A stretch of DNA of 64,000 nucleotides from Candidatus Magasanikbacteria bacterium RIFOXYC2_FULL_42_28 (GTDB taxonomy: Bacteria > Patescibacteriota > Patescibacteriia > Magasanikbacterales > GWA2-37-8): contig MFQZ01000003.1 of assembly GCA_001784435.1 (NCBI GenBank), positions 3,022 to 67,021 of the forward strand, in the 5' to 3' direction. A program made the position numbers and the translations under genes. Each line of letters starts with the position of its first letter. The first letter of the stretch is position 1. The notes under the pieces were generated by a model. That model was not told the origin of the DNA and searched no databases. It saw only the letters and a program-made list of their open reading frames with translations. Of this stretch, positions 1 through 53,259 are shown in pieces.

Positions 1-1930
1 GCGTCTCTACCACCAGCGATGATTTACCGGAACCCGACACACCAGTAACGCATACCAAACGCTCTAACGGAAAACTCACGGTAATATTTTTTAAATTAAA
101 CGCCTTGGCGCCTACGACCGTCAATCGGGAACAATTTTTACCGCAAAAACGTGGCGTCGCTTTTTCCACCACTTTAACTTTGCCGGATAAATACTGACCG
201 GTAAGTGAATCGGGATTATTTTTTACTTTTAAAAATTCCCCCTCGGCCATAATTTTGCCACCATACACCCCGGCGCCCGGACCAACGTCGATTAAATAAT
301 CGGCCGCTCGCATCATCGCCGCATCATGCTCCACGACAATTACCGAATTGCCTAAATCGCGCAAATAACGCAAAGTGGCGATTAATTGCTCATTGTCACG
401 CGGATGCAAACCAACGGACGGTTCATCTAAAATATAAATAACGCCCGAAAGACCGGATGACAACTGGCTCCCGAGACGCACGCGCGTAATTTCACCGCCC
501 GATAGTGTGGTTAAAGACCGATCTAAACTTAAATACCCCAAACCCACTTTACGCAGATTATCCAAACGCGCCAAAAGTTCGGTCCGCAACTGATCGCTGG
601 CCGGCAAACGTTCAATTTTAATTTTACTCAAAACCGCAAATGAATCATCCAAACTTAACGCCGCGATGGTCGCGATATTTTTACCATCAATTTTTACCGC
701 TAATGATTCGCGCCGTAAACGTCGGCCCTGACAATCCGGACAAATTAACTCGCGCATATACTGCTCAATTTCGCGACGAACATAATCAGAACCGGTTTCC
801 AAATGTCGCGCTCTCAAATCCGCCCGCACGCCCACAAAAGTAATTTTTTTACCATCCACAATATACTCATGAGCACCCACGCCGGTCAAAATTAATTTAC
901 GCGTTTTTTCCGGCAATTCAATAAACGGAGTATCCAAAGAAAAATCTTCCGCGAGCGCGGCTGCGACCAATAATTTTTGATAATAAACCTGATTACCGGT
1001 AATACGGGTCCAGGGCTGCACCGCGCCTTGCCCCAAAGTCAAACGGGGGTTAGGTACGATTAAAGCATCATCCACTTCCATCGTAATCCCGAGACCGGTA
1101 CAACGCGAACAAGCGCCATAAGGGCTATTAAAACTAAAATTGCGCACACTGAGTAGCGGATAAATTTTACCACAACGCGGACACAAACCCGAAGTGGAGA
1201 GAGTGATTTTTTCTTTACCGGACAATAACTGCATCACGCCGTTGCCCAATTCCAAAGCCGTCTCAACCGCTGTAACCGGACTCTGCTTTTTGATGTCTTC
1301 AATTTTTCCGGCCACTACCGCCACCTGATAACGTCGGCCGGCGACAAAATCATAATTGGCAAATTCGCGGCATTTGATAATTTTGTCATTAACCGATACT
1401 TCTTCCAAACCGGAACGCTCAATTCTTTCCAATAAAACTTTTTTATCAATTTTGTCGCTATCAATTAAGGGTGCGAGCACCACTACCGCGCCAGCGCGCG
1501 CGTAGCGACGAACCGTCGCGCCAATTTCACCAACCGTCGCTGATTTAGTTTTGAGCCCGCAGTCGGGACAATGCATCTCACCGGCGGACGCGTAAAGCAA
1601 ACGCAAATAATCATAAATTTCCGTGGCGGTGCCAACGGTAGAACGCGGATTTTGCGCAAATACTTTTTGATCAATCGCGATAGTTGGCGACAAGCCGTCA
1701 ATTTTATCCACATCCGGCTTATCACGCACGCCCATAAACTGACGCGCATACGAAGATAAGGACTCGGCATAACGCCTTTGTCCTTCCGCGTAAATAGTAT
1801 CAAACGCCAAAGAAGATTTCCCCGAGCCGGATAAACCGGTTACTACCACCAATTTGTTTTTCGGGATTTTGATGTTTACATTTTTGAGATTATGGACGCG
1901 CGCGCCTTTGATAGTAATTTCTTCTTTCAT
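1..1930 (-). CDS. uvrA: excinuclease ABC subunit A (UvrA), N-terminal ~643 codons; C-terminus continues past the window start
   Basis: Minus-strand translation from the ATG at 1930 reads [54 protein letters not shown], the UvrA N-terminal Walker A. Further in are [11 protein letters not shown]...[17 protein letters not shown]...VIVVEHD and, at the window edge, a second Walker [16 protein letters not shown]. The frame stays open to position 1, so it is absent from the ORF track only because there is no stop in the window. Confidence 0.9.
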
Positions 1931-10056: not shown

Positions 10057-10059
10057 ATT

Positions 10060-10745
10060 ATTTACTGTCATCCCGATGAAAATCGGGATCTCTGTCCAAA
10101 AATATAACAAGCAAAAACATCCCGACTAAGTCGGGATGTTTTCATTTTGTCTATAACTATAAGCCGAATTTTGTCCGGCGTCGCTACGCTATGCCGGACA
10201 AGTTCCGTTCCTTTTTACAAAGATACGGGCTTGCCCGAGCGTAGTTCCGACCAAGTCGGAACGAAGCCGGGATAACCATTTATCTAGGCCGACCATTGCT
10301 GGACGACTCAAGCCCGCCTTCGCTAATGCTATGGCGGACAATGCGAACGAACTTTTCCGGGCTTCGCTGCGCTTCGCCCGGTAAACCGTGATATTAATAT
10401 CATTGGGTTTACCCTGCGTAGCGCAGCGAAGCAGGGCTGCTCTTGCGCGCGGATAAGGATTTAGCCGTTTCACCCCCGATCTTATTTCCCCCTGTAATCG
10501 GGATTAAGCCATAATTTTGATAAATCAAAATTTTAGGGTTTGGCTCTTCCGGCAATTTCTCGCCGAAACGTCTCTGCTCGCACCTCGCGGGTTGCCCCGG
10601 GTTGGCGTTACCAACTATCTTTTTTCTCCCGACTTAGTCGGGAGGAGCGTGTTCGGACTTTCCTTCCCGACTAAGTCGGGATGGTTATCCATTATAGACA
10701 CCTATATTATAACACATTTTTGATGTTTTGTCAAGATACCAACCC
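10060..10745. repeat. ~690-bp noncoding stretch made almost entirely of nested palindromic repeat elements (several families)
   Basis: Contains gtcatcccgatgaaaatcgggatctctgtc (10067-10096; an identical copy is at 41375-41404), cccgactaagtcggg palindromes at about 10121, 10628 and 10666, tgtccggcg...gccggacaag, gttccgaccaagtcggaac, and gcttcgctgcgc...gcgtagcgcagcgaagc (shared with 37764-37784). The ORFs predicted here (10189..10473, 10517..10723) are repeat-derived. Confidence 0.6.
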
Positions 10746-41081: not shown

Positions 41082-41374
41082 ATGTTACCCATTATAACAT
41101 ATGGTAGACAAATAAGCAATAGCATTCCTTTTGCTCTACCAAAATTCCCTCCACAGAGCTGCGAGTAGATTTGCGTGTTTTAGCTTCAAATAAAATGGCG
41201 AAAGCTCCACTCATAACAAAGAAATGTTAGGAGATGGGAGAGAGAATGCTTTAACTCATCTTATTCGGTTGAGACACCAATTCTATCGCAGCTCAATAGA
41301 GAGAACAGATACCATTGTAGACGATTTAAAAGTTATGTCAAGACACCTTATCTGTTGATAAGTGATTACAAATT

Positions 41375-41477
41375 GTCATCCCGATGAAAATCGGGATCTC
41401 TGTCTCAAACAATGTGTTAAATTGTGAAGATCCCGATTTTCATCGGGATGACAACCCCCACTACGACTCGCAATGAC
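41375..41477. repeat. large inverted-repeat (cruciform-capable) element built from the GTCATCCCGATGAAAATCGGGATC unit
   Basis: gtcatcccgatgaaaatcgggatctctgtc...(30 nt)...gatcccgattttcatcgggatgac forms a perfect 24-bp inverted repeat, then ...ctcgcaatgac. The left arm is identical to 10067-10096. Confidence 0.6.
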
Positions 41478-48200: not shown

Positions 48201-48702
48201 AACCGGTATTAAACCATTGCGGAGAATTTGGCGCGGCCATTTGGTTGATTATCATGTAAACGAGCTCGTCGTAAAATACAACCGCGTCCTCGGCACTGGC
48301 AAAGTAACCATATTTTTCCGCCCAATATCGCCAAGTACCGGCCAAACGGTGCGCCACTTGCTTAACGCTGTTTTCAGGACCAAGCATGGGGGTCCCGTCA
48401 GCGTTCAACTTTGGCGCACCGTCCGCATCATACTGCAGAACGCCGGCTTTACGAAAATATTTTTGCGCCAAAATATCCGTGGCCACTTGCGACCACGTTT
48501 TTGGCACCTCTACATCGTTCATTTCAAAAATTATCTTACCGGTTGACTCGCGAATTACAGACGAACGCAGTTCGTACTGGAACATATCGTACGGACTCAC
48601 CCCGTTTTTAGTAAAATGCCGTTCAAATTTCAGGCCATTTTCCGGTGAATATTTATAATCAGAATCAACTTTAAAAATTTTAGTGGCGACAGCGGTGTTC
48701 AT
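45214..48702 (-). CDS. nrdJ: adenosylcobalamin-dependent (class II) ribonucleoside-triphosphate/diphosphate reductase
   Basis: Long RNR alpha-type ORF. The ORF track extends to 48759, but the ATG at 48702 (MNTAVATKIF...) is the likely start. It has class II RNR core motifs and a C-terminal Cys-rich Zn ribbon CGTCGHMTIRSGSCYKCLNCGSTTGC. The window also encodes a PduO cobalamin adenosyltransferase. An in-frame GC-rich palindrome (tctccccctcgggcagggggaga) lies at 46005-46030. Confidence 0.8.
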   Translation of the reverse strand: MNTAVATKIFKVDSDYKYSPENGLKFERHFTKNGVSPYDMFQYELRSSVIRESTGKIIFEMNDVEVPKTWSQVATDILAQKYFRKAGVLQYDADGAPKLNADGTPMLGPENSVKQVAHRLAGTWRYWAEKYGYFASAEDAVVFYDELVYMIINQMAAPNSPQWFNTGLQWAYGINGPSQGHYYINPDTGVLTRSEDSYTHPQPHACFIQSVNDDLVNEGGIMDLWVREARLFKYGSGTGTNFSALRGRGEPLSGGGTSSGLMSWLKIGDRAAGGIKSGGTTRRAAKMVILDVDHPDIEEFIIWKVNEEKKVAAMVAAGYDSHYEGEAYNTVSGQNSNNSVRVTQEYLEAVETGADWNLKWRTGGKVCKTLPARSLWEQIATSAWSCADPGLQYDTTINEWHTCPNSGRINASNPCSEYMFIDNTACNLASINLAHFYDSETASFDIEGFKYATRLWTVVLETSVLMAQFPSKEIAQGSYDFRTLGLGYANIGSVLMTAGIPYDSPEALAFAGSVTAIMGAQSYITSAEMAKNLGPFPKFKHNRAEMLRVIRNHRRAAFNASDDEYESLAVKPVGISEEFAPAYLLVAARNLWNEALEMGERYGYRNAQTTLLAPTGTIGLVMDCSTTGVEPDFALVKFKKLAGGGYFKIVNESVPMALKTLGYNQKQIDDIADYLKGRATLKNCPHINSESLKVKGFVDEDIAKIEKTLLGAFEMGFVFNVWTLGEECLKRLGYTSEQYNDPNFNLLKALGFTDEQVSEANEFVCGAMTIEGAPHLRSEHYAVFDTANKNGKKGQRYIHYLGHIRMMAAVQPFLCGSISKTINMPNEATVEDIKIAYMASWKLGLKCNAIYRDGCKLSQPLSAKSKKTESKKEEKIEEKVAPVVGGAVAVSPPARGGEAEGVGALANGDWQQAVDAEDMQINYAHDGTSNGKHVYIHGEQRKLPYKRSGMTIKAKVGGQKLFLRTGEFPDGKLGEVFIDMYKEGASFRSLLNLFAISISTGLQYGVPLEEYVDKFTFTRFEPSGMTDHPNVKFSTSIIDFIFRVIGMEYLGRTDFVQVKPTGIQRNRAQQLAHIAQEATAQTSLELETPDSLVKKESEQVEIAEAQMSLPKMPSASKKTTAVDAMLSNMMGDAPPCGTCGHMTIRSGSCYKCLNCGSTTGCS

Positions 48703-48755
48703 ATTGTTATAATTATGGGTGAAACCCTGTAATTTGTTATTTAAATTGATTTGAA

Positions 48756-48771
48756 ACACTATATGTAGTGT
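48756..48771. promoter_or_regulatory. NrdR-box-like palindrome in the nrdJ 5' region
   Basis: acactatatgtagtgt matches the NrdR box consensus acaCwAtATaTwGtgt. On the minus strand it lies between an extended -10 (tgatataat, plus 48791-48799) and the nrdJ start. Confidence 0.4.
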
Positions 48772-48937
48772 TTAAGTTCAAGGCCTATACATTATATCAC
48801 ACTCCGTCAAGAGCGACCAAATGACGACAAAAACCTTACAGTTGAGAGAAAAAAACCAACAAAAAATTTTGTTTGTAAAAGTTATCCACACCCCTCCGTC
48901 CCGACTGTGTCGGGACTACGGCGGTACAAGTCACTAA

Positions 48938-50008
48938 CTAACGCCACAACCAACACTCGCTCGCTACCTTTTGCTTTAACTTTCGCGAATTGCCATGACT
49001 GATAAGCCCTAAATACGATTGGACAACAGTATCTTTCGTAGTTAGGCGAATTTTTCGCAACATTCTCTGTTTTGTTTTAGTTCGAATAACACGATGGTCA
49101 AAGAAATTCACCCAACCAAGAAAATCAACACCGGAAGACACGGTTTTTATAAAAACTTTATCCGGATGCAAGGTAAGTTTTAAATTTGATTGTAAAAATT
49201 CTTGTATTTTTGGCATTGCCGCCTCCAACCGAAATTTATCACGCGAAAGAAAAATAAAATCATCGGCATACCGCGCGTAATAATGAGATTTTAGCCGGTG
49301 CTTTACCCATTGATCAAATTTATTTAAATAAATATTGGCGAATAACTGTGAGGTAAGATTGCCGAGAGGTAAGCCGACGCCAGATAATGATTCTGTGTGG
49401 AAACTGTTAATAATATTCTGCAACAGTCGAAGTATATTTTGATCAGGAATATAGCTACGCAATATTGTCAGTAATATTTCGTGATTAATACTCGCAAAAA
49501 ATTTCCTAATATCACATTTCAACACCCAACAAGTACGGTTATGATTTTTACTCACTCGAAACACCAAATTTCTAAAACTATTTACCGCCTTATGCGTCCC
49601 TTTATTATCACGGCAGGAAAAAGATCCGGCAATAAAAGTTTTATCAAAAAATGGATATAAAATCCGATAAACAGCGTGGTGGAGTAGCCGATCGCGCACG
49701 CTTGCCTTATGAATATGCCGTCGTTTGGGATCGTTAATAAAAAAACTTTTATAACCGCCGTGTTGATAAACGCGATTGACTAAATCTTCGTGAAGTTCTA
49801 CAATATTATCCATTAAGCGACTCTCAAACTCCACAACATCAATTTTCTTTTTCTTGTCAATTATAAATTCCTCCCACGCTAAACATAAATTTTCGTGGGA
49901 AATAATATTTTCATAACTATGACTCAATTGAATTTTCCCGCCGACACGGCAATTAAGCCCCCCCCCCCAGCAAAGCCGTACTGAAATTCCCATTTTGACT
50001 GAACTCAA
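48938..50008 (-). CDS. diversity-generating retroelement (DGR) reverse transcriptase
   Basis: RT motifs including YARYADDFIF (YxDD box) and the DGR-specific motif-4 sequence GVGLPLGNLTSQLFANIYLN (I/LGxxxSQ). 356 aa (or 351 from the ATG at 49993; the ORF track uses a TTG start). Adjacent TR/VR pair and Avd gene. Confidence 0.85.
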   Translation of the reverse strand: MSSVKMGISVRLCWGGGLNCRVGGKIQLSHSYENIISHENLCLAWEEFIIDKKKKIDVVEFESRLMDNIVELHEDLVNRVYQHGGYKSFFINDPKRRHIHKASVRDRLLHHAVYRILYPFFDKTFIAGSFSCRDNKGTHKAVNSFRNLVFRVSKNHNRTCWVLKCDIRKFFASINHEILLTILRSYIPDQNILRLLQNIINSFHTESLSGVGLPLGNLTSQLFANIYLNKFDQWVKHRLKSHYYARYADDFIFLSRDKFRLEAAMPKIQEFLQSNLKLTLHPDKVFIKTVSSGVDFLGWVNFFDHRVIRTKTKQRMLRKIRLTTKDTVVQSYLGLISHGNSRKLKQKVASECWLWR

Positions 50009-50330
50009 GATTTGTTATTTGTTGTGGCATAGTTTTTTAATTGATCTCCCGCGTTTGACGCGCTACACGCTCGGCGTAAAAATAGATAATTTATTTACCG
50101 AACTACTGGGGATAACGATTGCCGCGCAATATACCAAACGAACTGATAAATTAGAATTTTTAGAAGAATTGAATAGAAAATTTGATAACTTAAAATATTT
50201 TATCACTATTCTCTGGGAAGCAAAAGGGTTAAGTGCCGGAAAATATGCGCAACTATCTCAAAAACTCACACGCATCGGCCAAATGCTCGGCGGTTGGATT
50301 GCGCTTTTAAAAAGAAACTCTCCCAACTAA
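49995..50330 (+). CDS. Avd-like DGR accessory variability determinant (four-helix-bundle family), encoded on the strand opposite to the RT and TR
   Basis: 111 aa. The C-terminus LTRIGQMLGGWIALLKRN resembles the Bordetella Avd C-terminus (...GRILGSWIARVNRKG). The size and helical character fit the 23S-rRNA-IVS/Avd family. The start overlaps the RT start divergently. Confidence 0.6.
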   Translation: MTELKICYLLWHSFLIDLPRLTRYTLGVKIDNLFTELLGITIAAQYTKRTDKLEFLEELNRKFDNLKYFITILWEAKGLSAGKYAQLSQKLTRIGQMLGGWIALLKRNSPN

Positions 50331-50353
50331 ATTGGGAGAGAACGAGGATATTA

Positions 50354-50471
50354 GCTGAGGAAGCCGAACAGGTAGTTCCGATTCCAGTTGCCCTTGACCG
50401 TGTTGAGGTTCAGGTTGCGCCAGTCGGAATTGCCGTTGAGGTAGAGCACGTTGCCGTCCCGCGCGGAGCCG
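50354..50471 (-). repeat. DGR template repeat (TR), 118 bp, sense strand = minus
   Basis: 118/118 alignable with 50827-50944. All 14 mismatches are at positions where this copy has A on the minus strand. The minus-strand reading is ...GNVLYLNGNSDWRNLNLNTVKGNWNRNYLFGFLS, built on AAC/AAT codons. Confidence 0.8.
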
Positions 50472-50820
50472 CCTACAAATATACAAAATAACTTCTGTAA
50501 CACCGCCCCTTGAATACTCTTGGGGTTGAATCGAATTTGGAAACTTTATTTCCCTACTATTTTGTACCGAGTATCTTCATTTTTAGGGTATACCGGTAGC
50601 ACACTAACTGGCAACATATCGCCAATTATTCCGGCCGATCGGTGTATCCAGAGTTCAACCGCCCAAAGCCGTAGCCGTGGACTGTTTCGTTTACTATCCG
50701 GATATAGTATACCACAAAAAGGAAGAGCGCGCACCGAGAACCGATGCGCGCGCGAGGTGAAACGAAGGGACCGAGCGACCAAGGAACAAACAAAGTTCCA
50801 AGGCACCCAGGATCCCAGCG

Positions 50821-51399
50821 CTACTCGCTGAGGAAGCCGAACAGGAAGCGCCGACGCCAGCGGCCCTTGACCGTGTCGAGGTACAGGCCGCGCCAGTCGG
50901 AATCGCCGTAGAGGTAGAGCACGCTGCCGTCCCGCGCGGAGCCGAGCTCCACGATCGGTGCGTTCCTCTGCTCATCGGGGTGTTGCACCCCGATGGCCAA
51001 GAGGTGCTTGGGCAGGATGGGCGGCTTGGCGTTCTCCTTCCCCCAAGCCAGCATCTCCTCGCGGAACGGATCCCTGTCAAACTGCACCAAGATCACGCTC
51101 GCCGGCTTGGCGAGGCCAACTTCATCATTCGCAAACTGCCGAACGATGTTGTCGTCGGTGCCGTCGTACTTGCCGATCTTGATTGCCTCGGCAACCGACG
51201 ACACCTTGTACGGCTGGAGGACGAGCGTCCTCACAACCGTACCGATGAGCGGCGACGGCGGGGTGAGAGCCGGCCGTGTGACATCTTCCACGACGAGCTT
51301 GCGCTCACCGCGAAAAATGGCGCGGGCTACATCTGCGCCTCCCAACATGTTGAGGAGCGCTTCAGTTTCGCCCCTCCTCCAATCATCATACTTTCCCAT
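50821..51399 (-). CDS. DGR target protein (192 aa, unknown fold) with C-terminal variable region
   Basis: The minus-strand ORF contains the VR in frame. The ATG at 51399 is preceded by a strong SD ggaaggagctcgtcATG; the ORF track's longer 50821..51558 version lacks such a signal. The region is GC-rich (about 60% or more) relative to the rest of the window. Confidence 0.6.
   Translation of the reverse strand: MGKYDDWRRGETEALLNMLGGADVARAIFRGERKLVVEDVTRPALTPPSPLIGTVVRTLVLQPYKVSSVAEAIKIGKYDGTDDNIVRQFANDEVGLAKPASVILVQFDRDPFREEMLAWGKENAKPPILPKHLLAIGVQHPDEQRNAPIVELGSARDGSVLYLYGDSDWRGLYLDTVKGRWRRRFLFGFLSE
50827..50944 (-). repeat. DGR variable repeat (VR) at the 3' end of the target gene
   Basis: Same 118 bp as the TR, but with N at 14 TR-adenine positions. 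It encodes the C-terminal ...GSVLYLYGDSDWRGLYLDTVKGRWRRRFLFGFLSE of the target protein and ends 3 codons before the stop. Confidence 0.8.
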
Positions 51400-51637
51400 G
51401 ACGAGCTCCTTCCGAGTTGAAAACCCGAAAAGTGTTTTGCCTCTGCCCGAGGCCCAGGTCTCTCTCTGCATGAGAAGAGCTTTTGTGCCACTTACAAATA
51501 AATATAGGTAAACCATATTTACTCCTTGGTTCGAAAATGGAACGAAAGCACGGCTCATGATTGTTTAATTTTAACACTAAATCATACCTTAAAATAATGA
51601 TTTTGTCAATGTTTGTGTACCACGACCTCTTCATCAC

Positions 51638-51666
51638 TTGACATATTTTGATATTTAGTGTAAAAT
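51638..51666 (+). promoter_or_regulatory. sigma70-type promoter for the AbiEi/AbiEii operon
   Basis: TTGACA (51638-51643), 17-nt spacer, TAAAAT (51661-51666). Confidence 0.4.
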
Positions 51667-51704
51667 ATATACATAAAGTCATTAAATCTTATGACCTACG
51701 CTAT

Positions 51705-52490
51705 ATGAAACAAACTATACTTTCTGCTAAACAAAGCGAACTGCTCGAAAATCTGATTGGTGAATATGGCTTGATTGTCACTTCTGGTCAGATTATTAAG
51801 ATTGCTAAAAATAACTGGGATTACAAACAAGCCAAAAATCTAATAACAAAACTTGTCAAAGACGGCTGGCTCATCCGTATCAAACGAGGTCTGTATACTA
51901 TTTCCGAATTAACCGGCCGAGGATTTTTGTCGCTCTCATCCTATACGGTGGCCAATCTCTTGGTCAAGGATTCATACGTTTCTTTTGCATCCGCATTGCA
52001 ATATCATAATATGTTTGATCAGCTCATGAAAAAAACTACCTCTGTCAGTTTAAAAATGTACAAAACTACCACACTTAATAACATGGAATATGATTTTGTA
52101 AAAACCAAAAAACAATTATTTTTTGGTTTTGAAGAGATCGTGTTTTATAATAAAACAGTACGAATTGCCACAGCGGAAAAAGCGCTAATTGATATGGTCC
52201 ATTTTCACAAAAGTAAATTGATGATTGATGTGGTGATTGAAAAAATTATTAATCACAAACACGATCTGGATTTTAATCGTTTTAACGAATACCTATCTAA
52301 ATTTTCCGGCACTACCATTAAAATATTTGGCCTTATTTTTGATTTTCTAAATATTGATTCCAGTAAATTATACAAAATTGTGAAACATAAGCGCGGCACT
52401 AACTGGATGTTAGTCGGCGACAAAAAATTCGATGCCAAATGGAGAATATACTATGACGAATTCTTTGATCAATATAATGAAAAAACTTAA
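51705..52490 (+). CDS. type IV toxin-antitoxin system antitoxin AbiEi (wHTH transcriptional regulator)
   Basis: N-terminal AbiEi_4-like wHTH (LSAKQSELLENLIGEYGLIVTSGQIIKIAKNNWDYKQAKNLITKLVKDGWLIRIKRGLYTIS). It immediately precedes an AbiEii gene. The ORF track's 51648 start is a TTG inside the promoter; the ATG at 51705 is preferred. Confidence 0.7.
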   Translation: MKQTILSAKQSELLENLIGEYGLIVTSGQIIKIAKNNWDYKQAKNLITKLVKDGWLIRIKRGLYTISELTGRGFLSLSSYTVANLLVKDSYVSFASALQYHNMFDQLMKKTTSVSLKMYKTTTLNNMEYDFVKTKKQLFFGFEEIVFYNKTVRIATAEKALIDMVHFHKSKLMIDVVIEKIINHKHDLDFNRFNEYLSKFSGTTIKIFGLIFDFLNIDSSKLYKIVKHKRGTNWMLVGDKKFDAKWRIYYDEFFDQYNEKT

Positions 52491-52500
52491 TTTTTAAAAT

Positions 52501-53259
52501 ATGATTACTCGCCAACAATTAGAAATTATTAACCGAAAAACTTTGAAATATCCTTTGCATATTGCGGAAAAAGATTATTTTCTCACATTGGTTCTCCAAA
52601 TTATTACCCAATCCACCCTCCAAGATACTCTTATTTTCAAAGGTGGTACCGCTCTACACCATACCTACTTGGAACAACATCGTTTTTCCGAGGACTTGGA
52701 TTTTTCCGCCAACCAAAAACCGGTAGAATTGGAAGAATTGCGAAATATTTTTAGTGGTATTGACTATTTGAATATTAAAAAAGATTATCTCTCTGGCGCG
52801 ACTGTAAAAATTGAAAAATTGCAATACACCGGCCCTTTAATTCAGCCCAATTCTTTGAAAGTGGAAATAGATTTTTTGCAAAATGTTTTGCTTCCTCCTC
52901 AAACCCTAAAATACAACAACGTCTGGAATATAGATTTTGAGGTAAAGGTAATGAACATCAAGGAAATCTGCGCTGAAAAAATTCGCGCCACGAACGATCG
53001 CGCTCGTTATCGCGATTTTTATGATTTATTTCTTATTTTAGAAAAATATCAACTTGATTTAAACGAAATCGCCAGATATATAAAACAAAAAGAAATTAGA
53101 AAGCCGTTGACAAAAAACAACATAAAAAATAACTGGGCAATGATTGGTGCACAAAAAGAAATTGAAATGAGCCAAATATATTATTCTCGAATGATTGAGG
53201 ATGGGGAGATAATGGCCATGATTGAAACTCTGCCATTTACCAAGATTACAAAAATATAA
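52501..53259 (+). CDS. type IV toxin-antitoxin system toxin AbiEii (DUF1814 nucleotidyltransferase)
   Basis: Hallmark FKGGTALHHTYLEQHRFSEDLDF (GG...S.D.D NTase motif) and C-terminal ICAEKIRATNDRARYRDFYDLFLI. Confidence 0.8.
   Translation: MITRQQLEIINRKTLKYPLHIAEKDYFLTLVLQIITQSTLQDTLIFKGGTALHHTYLEQHRFSEDLDFSANQKPVELEELRNIFSGIDYLNIKKDYLSGATVKIEKLQYTGPLIQPNSLKVEIDFLQNVLLPPQTLKYNNVWNIDFEVKVMNIKEICAEKIRATNDRARYRDFYDLFLILEKYQLDLNEIARYIKQKEIRKPLTKNNIKNNWAMIGAQKEIEMSQIYYSRMIEDGEIMAMIETLPFTKITKI

Follow-up and report, generated by a model that had tools for sequence, protein, structure and literature searches.

The 64-kb stretch of contig MFQZ01000003.1 from Candidatus Magasanikbacteria bacterium RIFOXYC2_FULL_42_28 (the window) carries a diversity-generating retroelement (DGR) whose accessory gene, avd, is on the opposite strand to the template repeat (TR) and the reverse transcriptase (RT). 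The initial annotation had taken this arrangement to be unusual, and the locus raises the question of whether it is so and how an element built in this way would be expressed. DGRs of the candidate phyla radiation (CPR) are reportedly the subject of Paul et al. 2017. We consider it probable, at about three chances in four, that the window holds an ordinary CPR-type TR-(avd)-RT element, the parentheses marking the reverse strand, which is expressed as separate units, with the template in an RNA gene of its own and a leader resembling the Sp region of the Bordetella phage DGR RNA. Because the TR would then belong to its own small RNA gene, the opposite-strand layout of avd would work. Positions are those of the window, and minus-strand features are read from high to low.

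The region 48938-51558 holds a complete DGR, with an adenine-specific pair of repeats, a DGR-type RT and a variable repeat (VR) at the 3' end of the target gene. The TR (50471..50354) and the 118-nt VR (50944..50827) form a direct repeat pair on the minus strand, offset by 473 nt and 87% identical. All 14 mismatches of the repeat core fall at TR adenines when read on the minus strand, which identifies 50471..50354 as the TR and the minus strand as its sense, adenine-bearing strand. The end of the VR is 6 nt from the stop of the target gene, a 245-aa open reading frame (ORF) at 51558..50821 on the minus strand, for which a Pfam search gave no family above the cut-off. The RT ORF, also on the minus strand (48938-50008), matches RVT_1 (E=5e-27), carries the motifs LGNLTSQ and YADD, and is the only RT found in the whole window. 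Its product has 329 aa when read from TTG 49927 (48938..49927) and 351 aa from the annotated alternative start, ATG 49993. The protein is 100% identical to one from Candidatus Magasanikbacteria RIFOXYC2_FULL_42, a CPR bacterium, and the protein collection contains over 8000 relatives of it, thousands of them in CPR.

In order to establish the identity of the gene that diverges from the RT, the 111-aa ORF read from TTG 49995 (49995..50330, plus strand) was compared with known families and folds. It matches Pfam PF22296 bAvd with E=8.9e-13 and 49.1 bits, the cut-off of this family being 40 bits. A HMMER search of PDB sequences with an Avd profile returned nothing at E<=0.01, and the sole match at E<=10 was a chance one to Dps, so that a fold search was needed for a structural match. 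The AlphaFold model, built on an alignment of 31 relatives, is a four-helix bundle with a mean predicted local distance difference test score (pLDDT) of 92.7, and the fold search of the PDB aligned it to Bordetella Avd (4dwl) with a template-modelling (TM) score of 0.84-0.87 and a root-mean-square deviation of 1.6 Å. The model also matches the DGR ribonucleoprotein 8ub7, the best PDB matches being S23-family bundles. An exact-protein look-up of the 111-aa Avd found no record. When the profile built from relatives was run over both strands of the window, a single Avd homologue was detected and no co-directional minus-strand avd. The plus-strand ORF 49995-50330 is a genuine Avd gene diverging from the RT. 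The initial annotation had described it as Avd-like and opposite in strand to target, TR and RT, and both descriptions were borne out; the two refuting checks proposed with them, for a missing Avd or four-helix match and for a co-directional minus-strand avd, both came out in their favour. It had also placed the TR in antisense within the 3' region of avd. The TR does lie on the minus strand near the 3' end of avd, but the two do not overlap, the TR ending ~24 nt past the avd stop. What is antisense to avd is only the 3' arm and T-run of a hairpin that follows the TR, covering the last ~7 codons (K R N S P N stop).

The layout was next compared with that of relatives, using 108 loci that the RT retrieved from collections of genomes and metagenomes. 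Divergent avd was counted in all loci that reach from the N-terminus of the RT to 400 nt or more upstream of it (n=68, window included), and in 68 of 68 an Avd homologue lies immediately upstream of the RT on the opposite strand. A comparison of gene order in the nearest RT homologues, which had been suggested as a check, gave the same divergent avd throughout. Of 51 non-redundant loci, 42 have, directly next to the avd 3' end, a TR whose mismatches are biased towards A when read on the RT-sense strand, and in nearly all of these the VR is 230-430 nt further upstream. The gap between VR and TR is ~350 nt and its length is conserved among the relatives examined. The same arrangement has been published. 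In the available part of Wu et al. 2018 (PMC5758913; NAR 46:11) it is architecture B3, TR-(avd)-RT, given there as 90% of the CPR DGR set. That part also states that components on different strands need at least two transcription units and that co-transcription of TR and RT is not required. With its TR upstream of the RT on the same strand, a reversed avd between them and no other accessory gene, the window has the B3 order and orientation, and it shares with the B3 elements described there a CPR host and Avd as the only accessory gene. The leader RNA, promoters and homopolymer tract reported below for the window family are not described in that part of the paper.

The inverted avd is therefore a normal member of an architecture already known, and the proposal that the arrangement is unusual was not upheld: what had been flagged is the textbook layout of a CPR DGR, and by itself it adds nothing new. 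That the inversion could be peculiar to this genome, through rearrangement, misassembly or a spurious antisense ORF, and would then make a truly unusual regulatory design, was suggested only by the way in which it differs from the models of Bordetella, Legionella and Treponema. We give this explanation practically no weight, given that 68 of 68 independent assemblies have the same layout and that the ORF combines a Pfam match with the Avd fold; the published B3 class and the census already refute it. A spurious ORF, a misassembly and a second co-directional avd were each rejected, on the profile search of the window and the uniform layout of the 68 loci.

The gap between VR and TR, aligned for 40 non-redundant loci, contains what appears to be a separate template RNA unit; its promoter and terminator, like the other promoters discussed below, are read from sequence conservation. 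The upstream end is marked by a GC-rich, terminator-like hairpin and T-run after the target gene (50751..50717, minus strand), and a site of this kind follows the VR in 20 of 40 relatives against 0 of 40 on the other strand. Directly beyond it lies an extended -10 promoter-like element, TGgTATACT (TGGTATACT; 50714..50706, minus strand), the candidate promoter of the RNA. The pattern TGnTAnnnT occurs at one aligned position upstream of the leader in 30 of 40 loci, with the key A kept in 40/40 and the key T in 39/40. Next comes a structured leader of ~225 nt (50472..50698, minus strand), immediately 5' of the TR. RNAalifold predicts 37 base pairs across the 40 loci, mainly in five covarying helices, with compensatory changes in 33 of the pairs. 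The helices are H1 (50682..50661), H2 (50628..50605) and the short stem-loop H4 (50553..50539); H5 (50526..50505) is a stem-loop with a conserved loop, and H3 is a long-range helix (50567-50556 with 50492-50481) whose 3' strand ends ~10 nt before the TR.

An independent count of pairing gave 96.0% of cells paired, against 37-51% with the 3' partners slid, and 458 double-change cells against 64-107; in 500 shuffles the observed values were never reached. In H3 97.5% of cells are paired and 10 of 12 pairs show compensatory changes. Moreover, a covariance model of the 3' domain of the leader (R1) finds a single match in the window, at 50604..50478 (122.5 bits, E=5e-28), and also matches 10 held-out loci, always on the RT-sense strand and upstream of avd. 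An Rfam scan of 48500-52000 at E<=1 returned no family, and the leader matches none of the RT-1..19 motifs.

On the other side of the TR, a short conserved linker, AAUAUCCUCGUU (50352..50341, minus strand), is followed by the hairpin CTCTCCCAA-TTTAG-TTGGGAGAG and the run TTTCTTTTT (50340..50305, minus strand), which is terminator-like and/or resembles an Avd-binding stem-loop. A hairpin with T-run is present after the TR on the TR-sense strand in 33 of 42 loci, compared with 4 of 42 on the other strand, and the stems vary in sequence among loci with pairing kept. In some relatives the whole hairpin is located between TR and avd, which shows that it does not arise as a side effect of the avd coding sequence. 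RNAalifold found no consensus pairs from the TR end into the anti-avd stretch, in an alignment in which MAFFT had misaligned the hairpin region. From promoter, leader, TR, hairpin and U-run together we infer an autonomous non-coding RNA gene of ~390 nt, and TR and RT are likely to be on separate transcripts. The initial annotation had offered two alternatives, an unusual regulatory arrangement or separate TR and RT transcripts; the second is favoured by the TR-unit promoter, the terminator-like hairpin and the predicted avd promoter, and the first is not supported by the layout comparison.

The predicted avd promoter, TTGACT-17-TACAAT (49776-49781 and 49799-49804, plus strand), is situated within the RT coding sequence. 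Read in the avd sense, TTGAC(T/C)-17-TACAAT is found in 21 of 21 loci whose RT has the motif DNIVEL. Both Val codons from which the hexamers are formed are fixed: one is GTA in all 21, against a background of 31% (p=2e-11), and the other is the rare GTC in 16 of 18 loci against a background of 14% (p=2e-12). There is thus good evidence for this element as a candidate avd promoter kept by fixed synonymous RT codons. A transcript started there would be antisense to the RT coding sequence over its initial ~115 nt. A search inside avd for a conserved RT promoter gave TTGTAA-17-TAAAAT in one subgroup only.

In order to place the leader, we compared it with the DGR RNA of the Bordetella phage, which consists of 20 nt of avd, the TR and a 140-nt Sp (Handa et al., bioRxiv 10.1101/2023.10.23.563531). 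In that RNA, Sp 3-33 forms an Avd-binding stem-loop directly after the TR, Sp 53-56 forms the template:primer duplex with the TR 3' end, and Sp 59-70 next to it forms the 'cPRT Stop' with the avd segment that immediately precedes the TR; beyond it come a short stem-loop and adenosines, then the single-stranded 'thumb ring' and a stem-loop that binds the RT. A comparable pairing can be proposed in the window. The leader strand AAUGAAGAUACU (50581..50570, minus strand), 2 nt 5' of the H3 5' strand, would form a helix H0 with the linker at 50352..50341. In a register-free test the mean duplex energy was -8.55 kcal/mol with the own partner and -5.98 kcal/mol across loci, a difference reached in 0 of 5000 permutations, while six other leader segments used as controls gave no difference between own and cross partners. 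In the fixed alignment 9 of 12 H0 pairs have changes on both sides. Furthermore, a subgroup with divergent leader and post-TR sequences (…CACCCC / CUGAUGGUG…; L001, L013, L016, L017, L018, L030 and L042) stays complementary, L018 with a 12 bp duplex despite the divergence, and in this subgroup the hairpin lies entirely between TR and avd. A single leader strand would in this way pair with both TR flanks, and is followed by H4, an A-rich single strand and H5.

The window shares with the Bordetella phage BPP-1 element (mtd-avd-TR-brt) the adenine-specific mutagenesis signature and the Avd fold. Both have a stem-loop directly 3' of the TR, whose role in the window may be Avd binding, termination or both, and in both one contiguous strand forms duplexes 5' of the TR and at its 3' end. 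The order after these duplexes is also alike, with short stem-loop, adenosines, single strand and further stem-loop arranged as in Sp 53-139. In contrast to BPP-1, avd in the window is inverted and occupies the TR-RT interval, which has no Sp of ~140 nt, the gap from TR to avd being ~20 nt; the Sp-like module is 5' rather than 3' of the TR, and the RNA apparently has a promoter and a terminator of its own. No similarity of the leader to the Bordetella DGR RNA was detected in sequence or through Rfam (RT-10). The pairing structure of the leader is well supported, and the DGR RNA looks like a circular permutation of that of Bordetella; by analogy only, the leader might be the functional equivalent of Sp, acting in priming, stopping and RT binding. 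With an Sp-like module 5' of the TR, the interval between TR and RT would be free for the inverted avd. The survey of other DGRs by Handa et al. (bioRxiv 10.1101/2023.10.23.563531) took in 40 nt on the upstream and 100 nt on the downstream side of the TR, so that a 225-nt leader was out of its reach.

In the mode of expression that we propose, the DGR would be divided into separate units, unlike that of the Bordetella phage, where avd, TR and RT share a single transcript. The extended -10 at 50714-50706 would drive a minus-strand leader-TR RNA of ~390 nt, which the post-TR hairpin and U-run would end inside the antisense of the last avd codons. Avd would be transcribed on the other strand from its own near-consensus promoter within the RT coding sequence, the RT would be a further transcription unit, and the RT-Avd complex would act in trans on the leader-TR RNA. 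By analogy with Bordetella, the leader may supply from the 5' side the elements that Sp gives from the 3' side, with H0 and H3 flanking the TR.

Several observations weigh against this proposal. The search of the window for an RT promoter gave nothing convincing, only a weak CAAAAT, which leaves room for read-through from the TR unit, and in nine of 42 relatives no clear T-run follows the hairpin. Avd binding might be all that the hairpin serves for, and transcription would then run on into anti-avd. In the fixed alignment H0 has 69% of cells paired and a conserved U.C mismatch, making it weaker than the other helices, and the functions of the helices (primer, stop, RT binding) are assigned from the Bordetella analogy only. 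The first three of these agree with one long minus-strand transcript containing leader, TR, anti-avd and RT, in which the hairpin would be a protein-binding stem-loop or a leaky terminator; the RT would be translated from that RNA, and avd expression would compete with it through antisense or transcriptional interference. Such a transcript also draws on the description by Handa et al. (bioRxiv 10.1101/2023.10.23.563531) of the stem-loop 3' of the TR as an Avd-binding element and not a terminator. We nevertheless hold it to be unlikely, considering the T-run that follows the hairpin in most loci, including those with the hairpin outside avd, the lack of conserved structure in the anti-avd RNA, and the statement, in the part of Wu et al. 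(PMC5758913) cited above, that TR and RT need not be co-transcribed.

Separate expression with the template in its own RNA gene would bear on a question that the Bordetella model leaves and the B3 layout raises, namely where the cis-acting RNA elements are placed when there is no spacer between TR and RT. To this question the conserved leader gives a concrete answer that can be tested, and it also yields a defined RNA of ~390 nt for reconstituting a CPR DGR. No description of a leader RNA with permuted topology, an embedded avd promoter or the homopolymer was found in the literature covered, which did not include Paul et al. 2017 and the supplements of Wu et al., so that novelty is uncertain.

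The start codons of avd and RT had been placed 2-15 nt apart, and this is correct only for the mechanical or annotated starts (avd TTG 49995; RT ATG 49993 or TTG 50008). Most RT relatives, however, have 329-334 aa and start with the full motif MKIQL(V/S)H(T/S)Y or from its Leu onward, which puts the RT N-terminus of the window at TTG 49927. The Leu codon is TTG in 31 of 36 cases, against a background of 28% (p=4e-13). Given that the window lacks the ATG of the MKIQL motif, and that ATG 49993 is in the RT frame only via a G11 run, the RT probably starts at TTG 49927 and the spacing of 2-15 nt is probably an artefact of annotation. The His codon of the same motif is CAT in 38 of 40 loci and reads ATG on the other strand; in the window this ATG is at 49919..49921 (plus strand). 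It is the start in relatives of a long Avd form, M(T/A/S)QLNF...PPP...(E/D)(I/L)PIL, which makes up about one third of database Avds, the remainder having gene-caller starts inside helix 1. With the RT starting at TTG 49927 and the long avd form at ATG 49919, the two ORFs would overlap head to head by 9 nt. Within 49919-49930 the palindrome CAATTG and the RT His codon are conserved at the nucleotide level. In the contigs with Avd P0128 (L109-L111), where the long Avd is in frame, gene callers have shortened the RT to 292 aa, avoiding the overlap; public RT and Avd lengths of this DGR family are therefore unreliable.

In the window ATG 49919 is out of frame (+1) through a C11 homopolymer (49958..49968, plus strand; G11 when read in the RT sense), which lies between the RT and avd 5' ends. 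Its frame stops after 21 codons, while C10 would give an Avd of 136 aa. At the same place most relatives have a G/C tract of 8-13 nt (G8-G13), replaced by (GA)n in L027 and L091. Tract length differs within three independent near-identical pairs (L025/L082, L023/L080 and L004/L040) whose 200-nt flanks are 97.5-100% identical; exact-protein look-ups are unable to reveal such polymorphism. The upstream avd ATG is in frame and open in 8 of 8 loci without a long tract, compared with 11 of 32 with one. The overall frame split of this ATG, 19:13:8, is not significantly different from uniform, and only the split by presence of the tract is informative.

Two readings agree equally with this pattern, a frame switch prone to slippage and homopolymer noise together with a downstream TTG that can be used. 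The phase-variable genes and contingency loci of Neisseria and Haemophilus resemble the window family in having a G/C run (8-13 nt) at a fixed place near an ORF 5' end or divergent control region, in length differences between near-identical sequences, and in a frame randomised only where the tract is long. Unlike in those loci, the tract here is known from sequence alone, its differences could be assembly noise, and the downstream TTG may make the frame irrelevant. No report of a homopolymer switch in a DGR was found in the literature searched. A wider proposal, in which a free-standing, circularly permuted template RNA with its Sp-like module 5' of the TR is combined with slippage of the G/C tract as a switch of the long Avd, turning diversification on and off, is one that we put forward tentatively and would not rate as likely. 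If the tract is indeed a switch, it would be a first sign of phase-variable DGR activity.

The out-of-frame ATG of the long Avd form could also be taken to mean that the element is decaying and inactive, with avd frameshifted by C11 and its gene order irrelevant. We find this improbable: the RT is intact with its YADD and LGNLTSQ motifs, the VR carries 14 adenine-specific changes with no other decay, the ORF from TTG 49995 spans nearly the whole Avd domain, and the RNA elements all score as well as in relatives.

Some further features of the surroundings were recorded. The target gene and the TR (50650-51400) are far richer in GC than the rest of cassette and genome (60-65% in the window against 36-40%), the GC-rich part of the target ORF beginning near ATG 51399, and the family means over L001-L091 are 0.56 for the target body, 0.66 for the VR, 0.55 for the TR and 0.37 for both avd and RT. 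Adjoining the target gene on the plus strand (51648-53259) are an AbiEi-like antitoxin and an AbiEii toxin, a type IV toxin-antitoxin pair, with divergent promoter-like sites at 51581-51666. Elsewhere in the window a 45-nt element occurs in two copies 31 kb apart (10057-10101 and 41365-41409), which are 87% identical and contain the hairpin CCCGAT-GAAA-ATCGGG.

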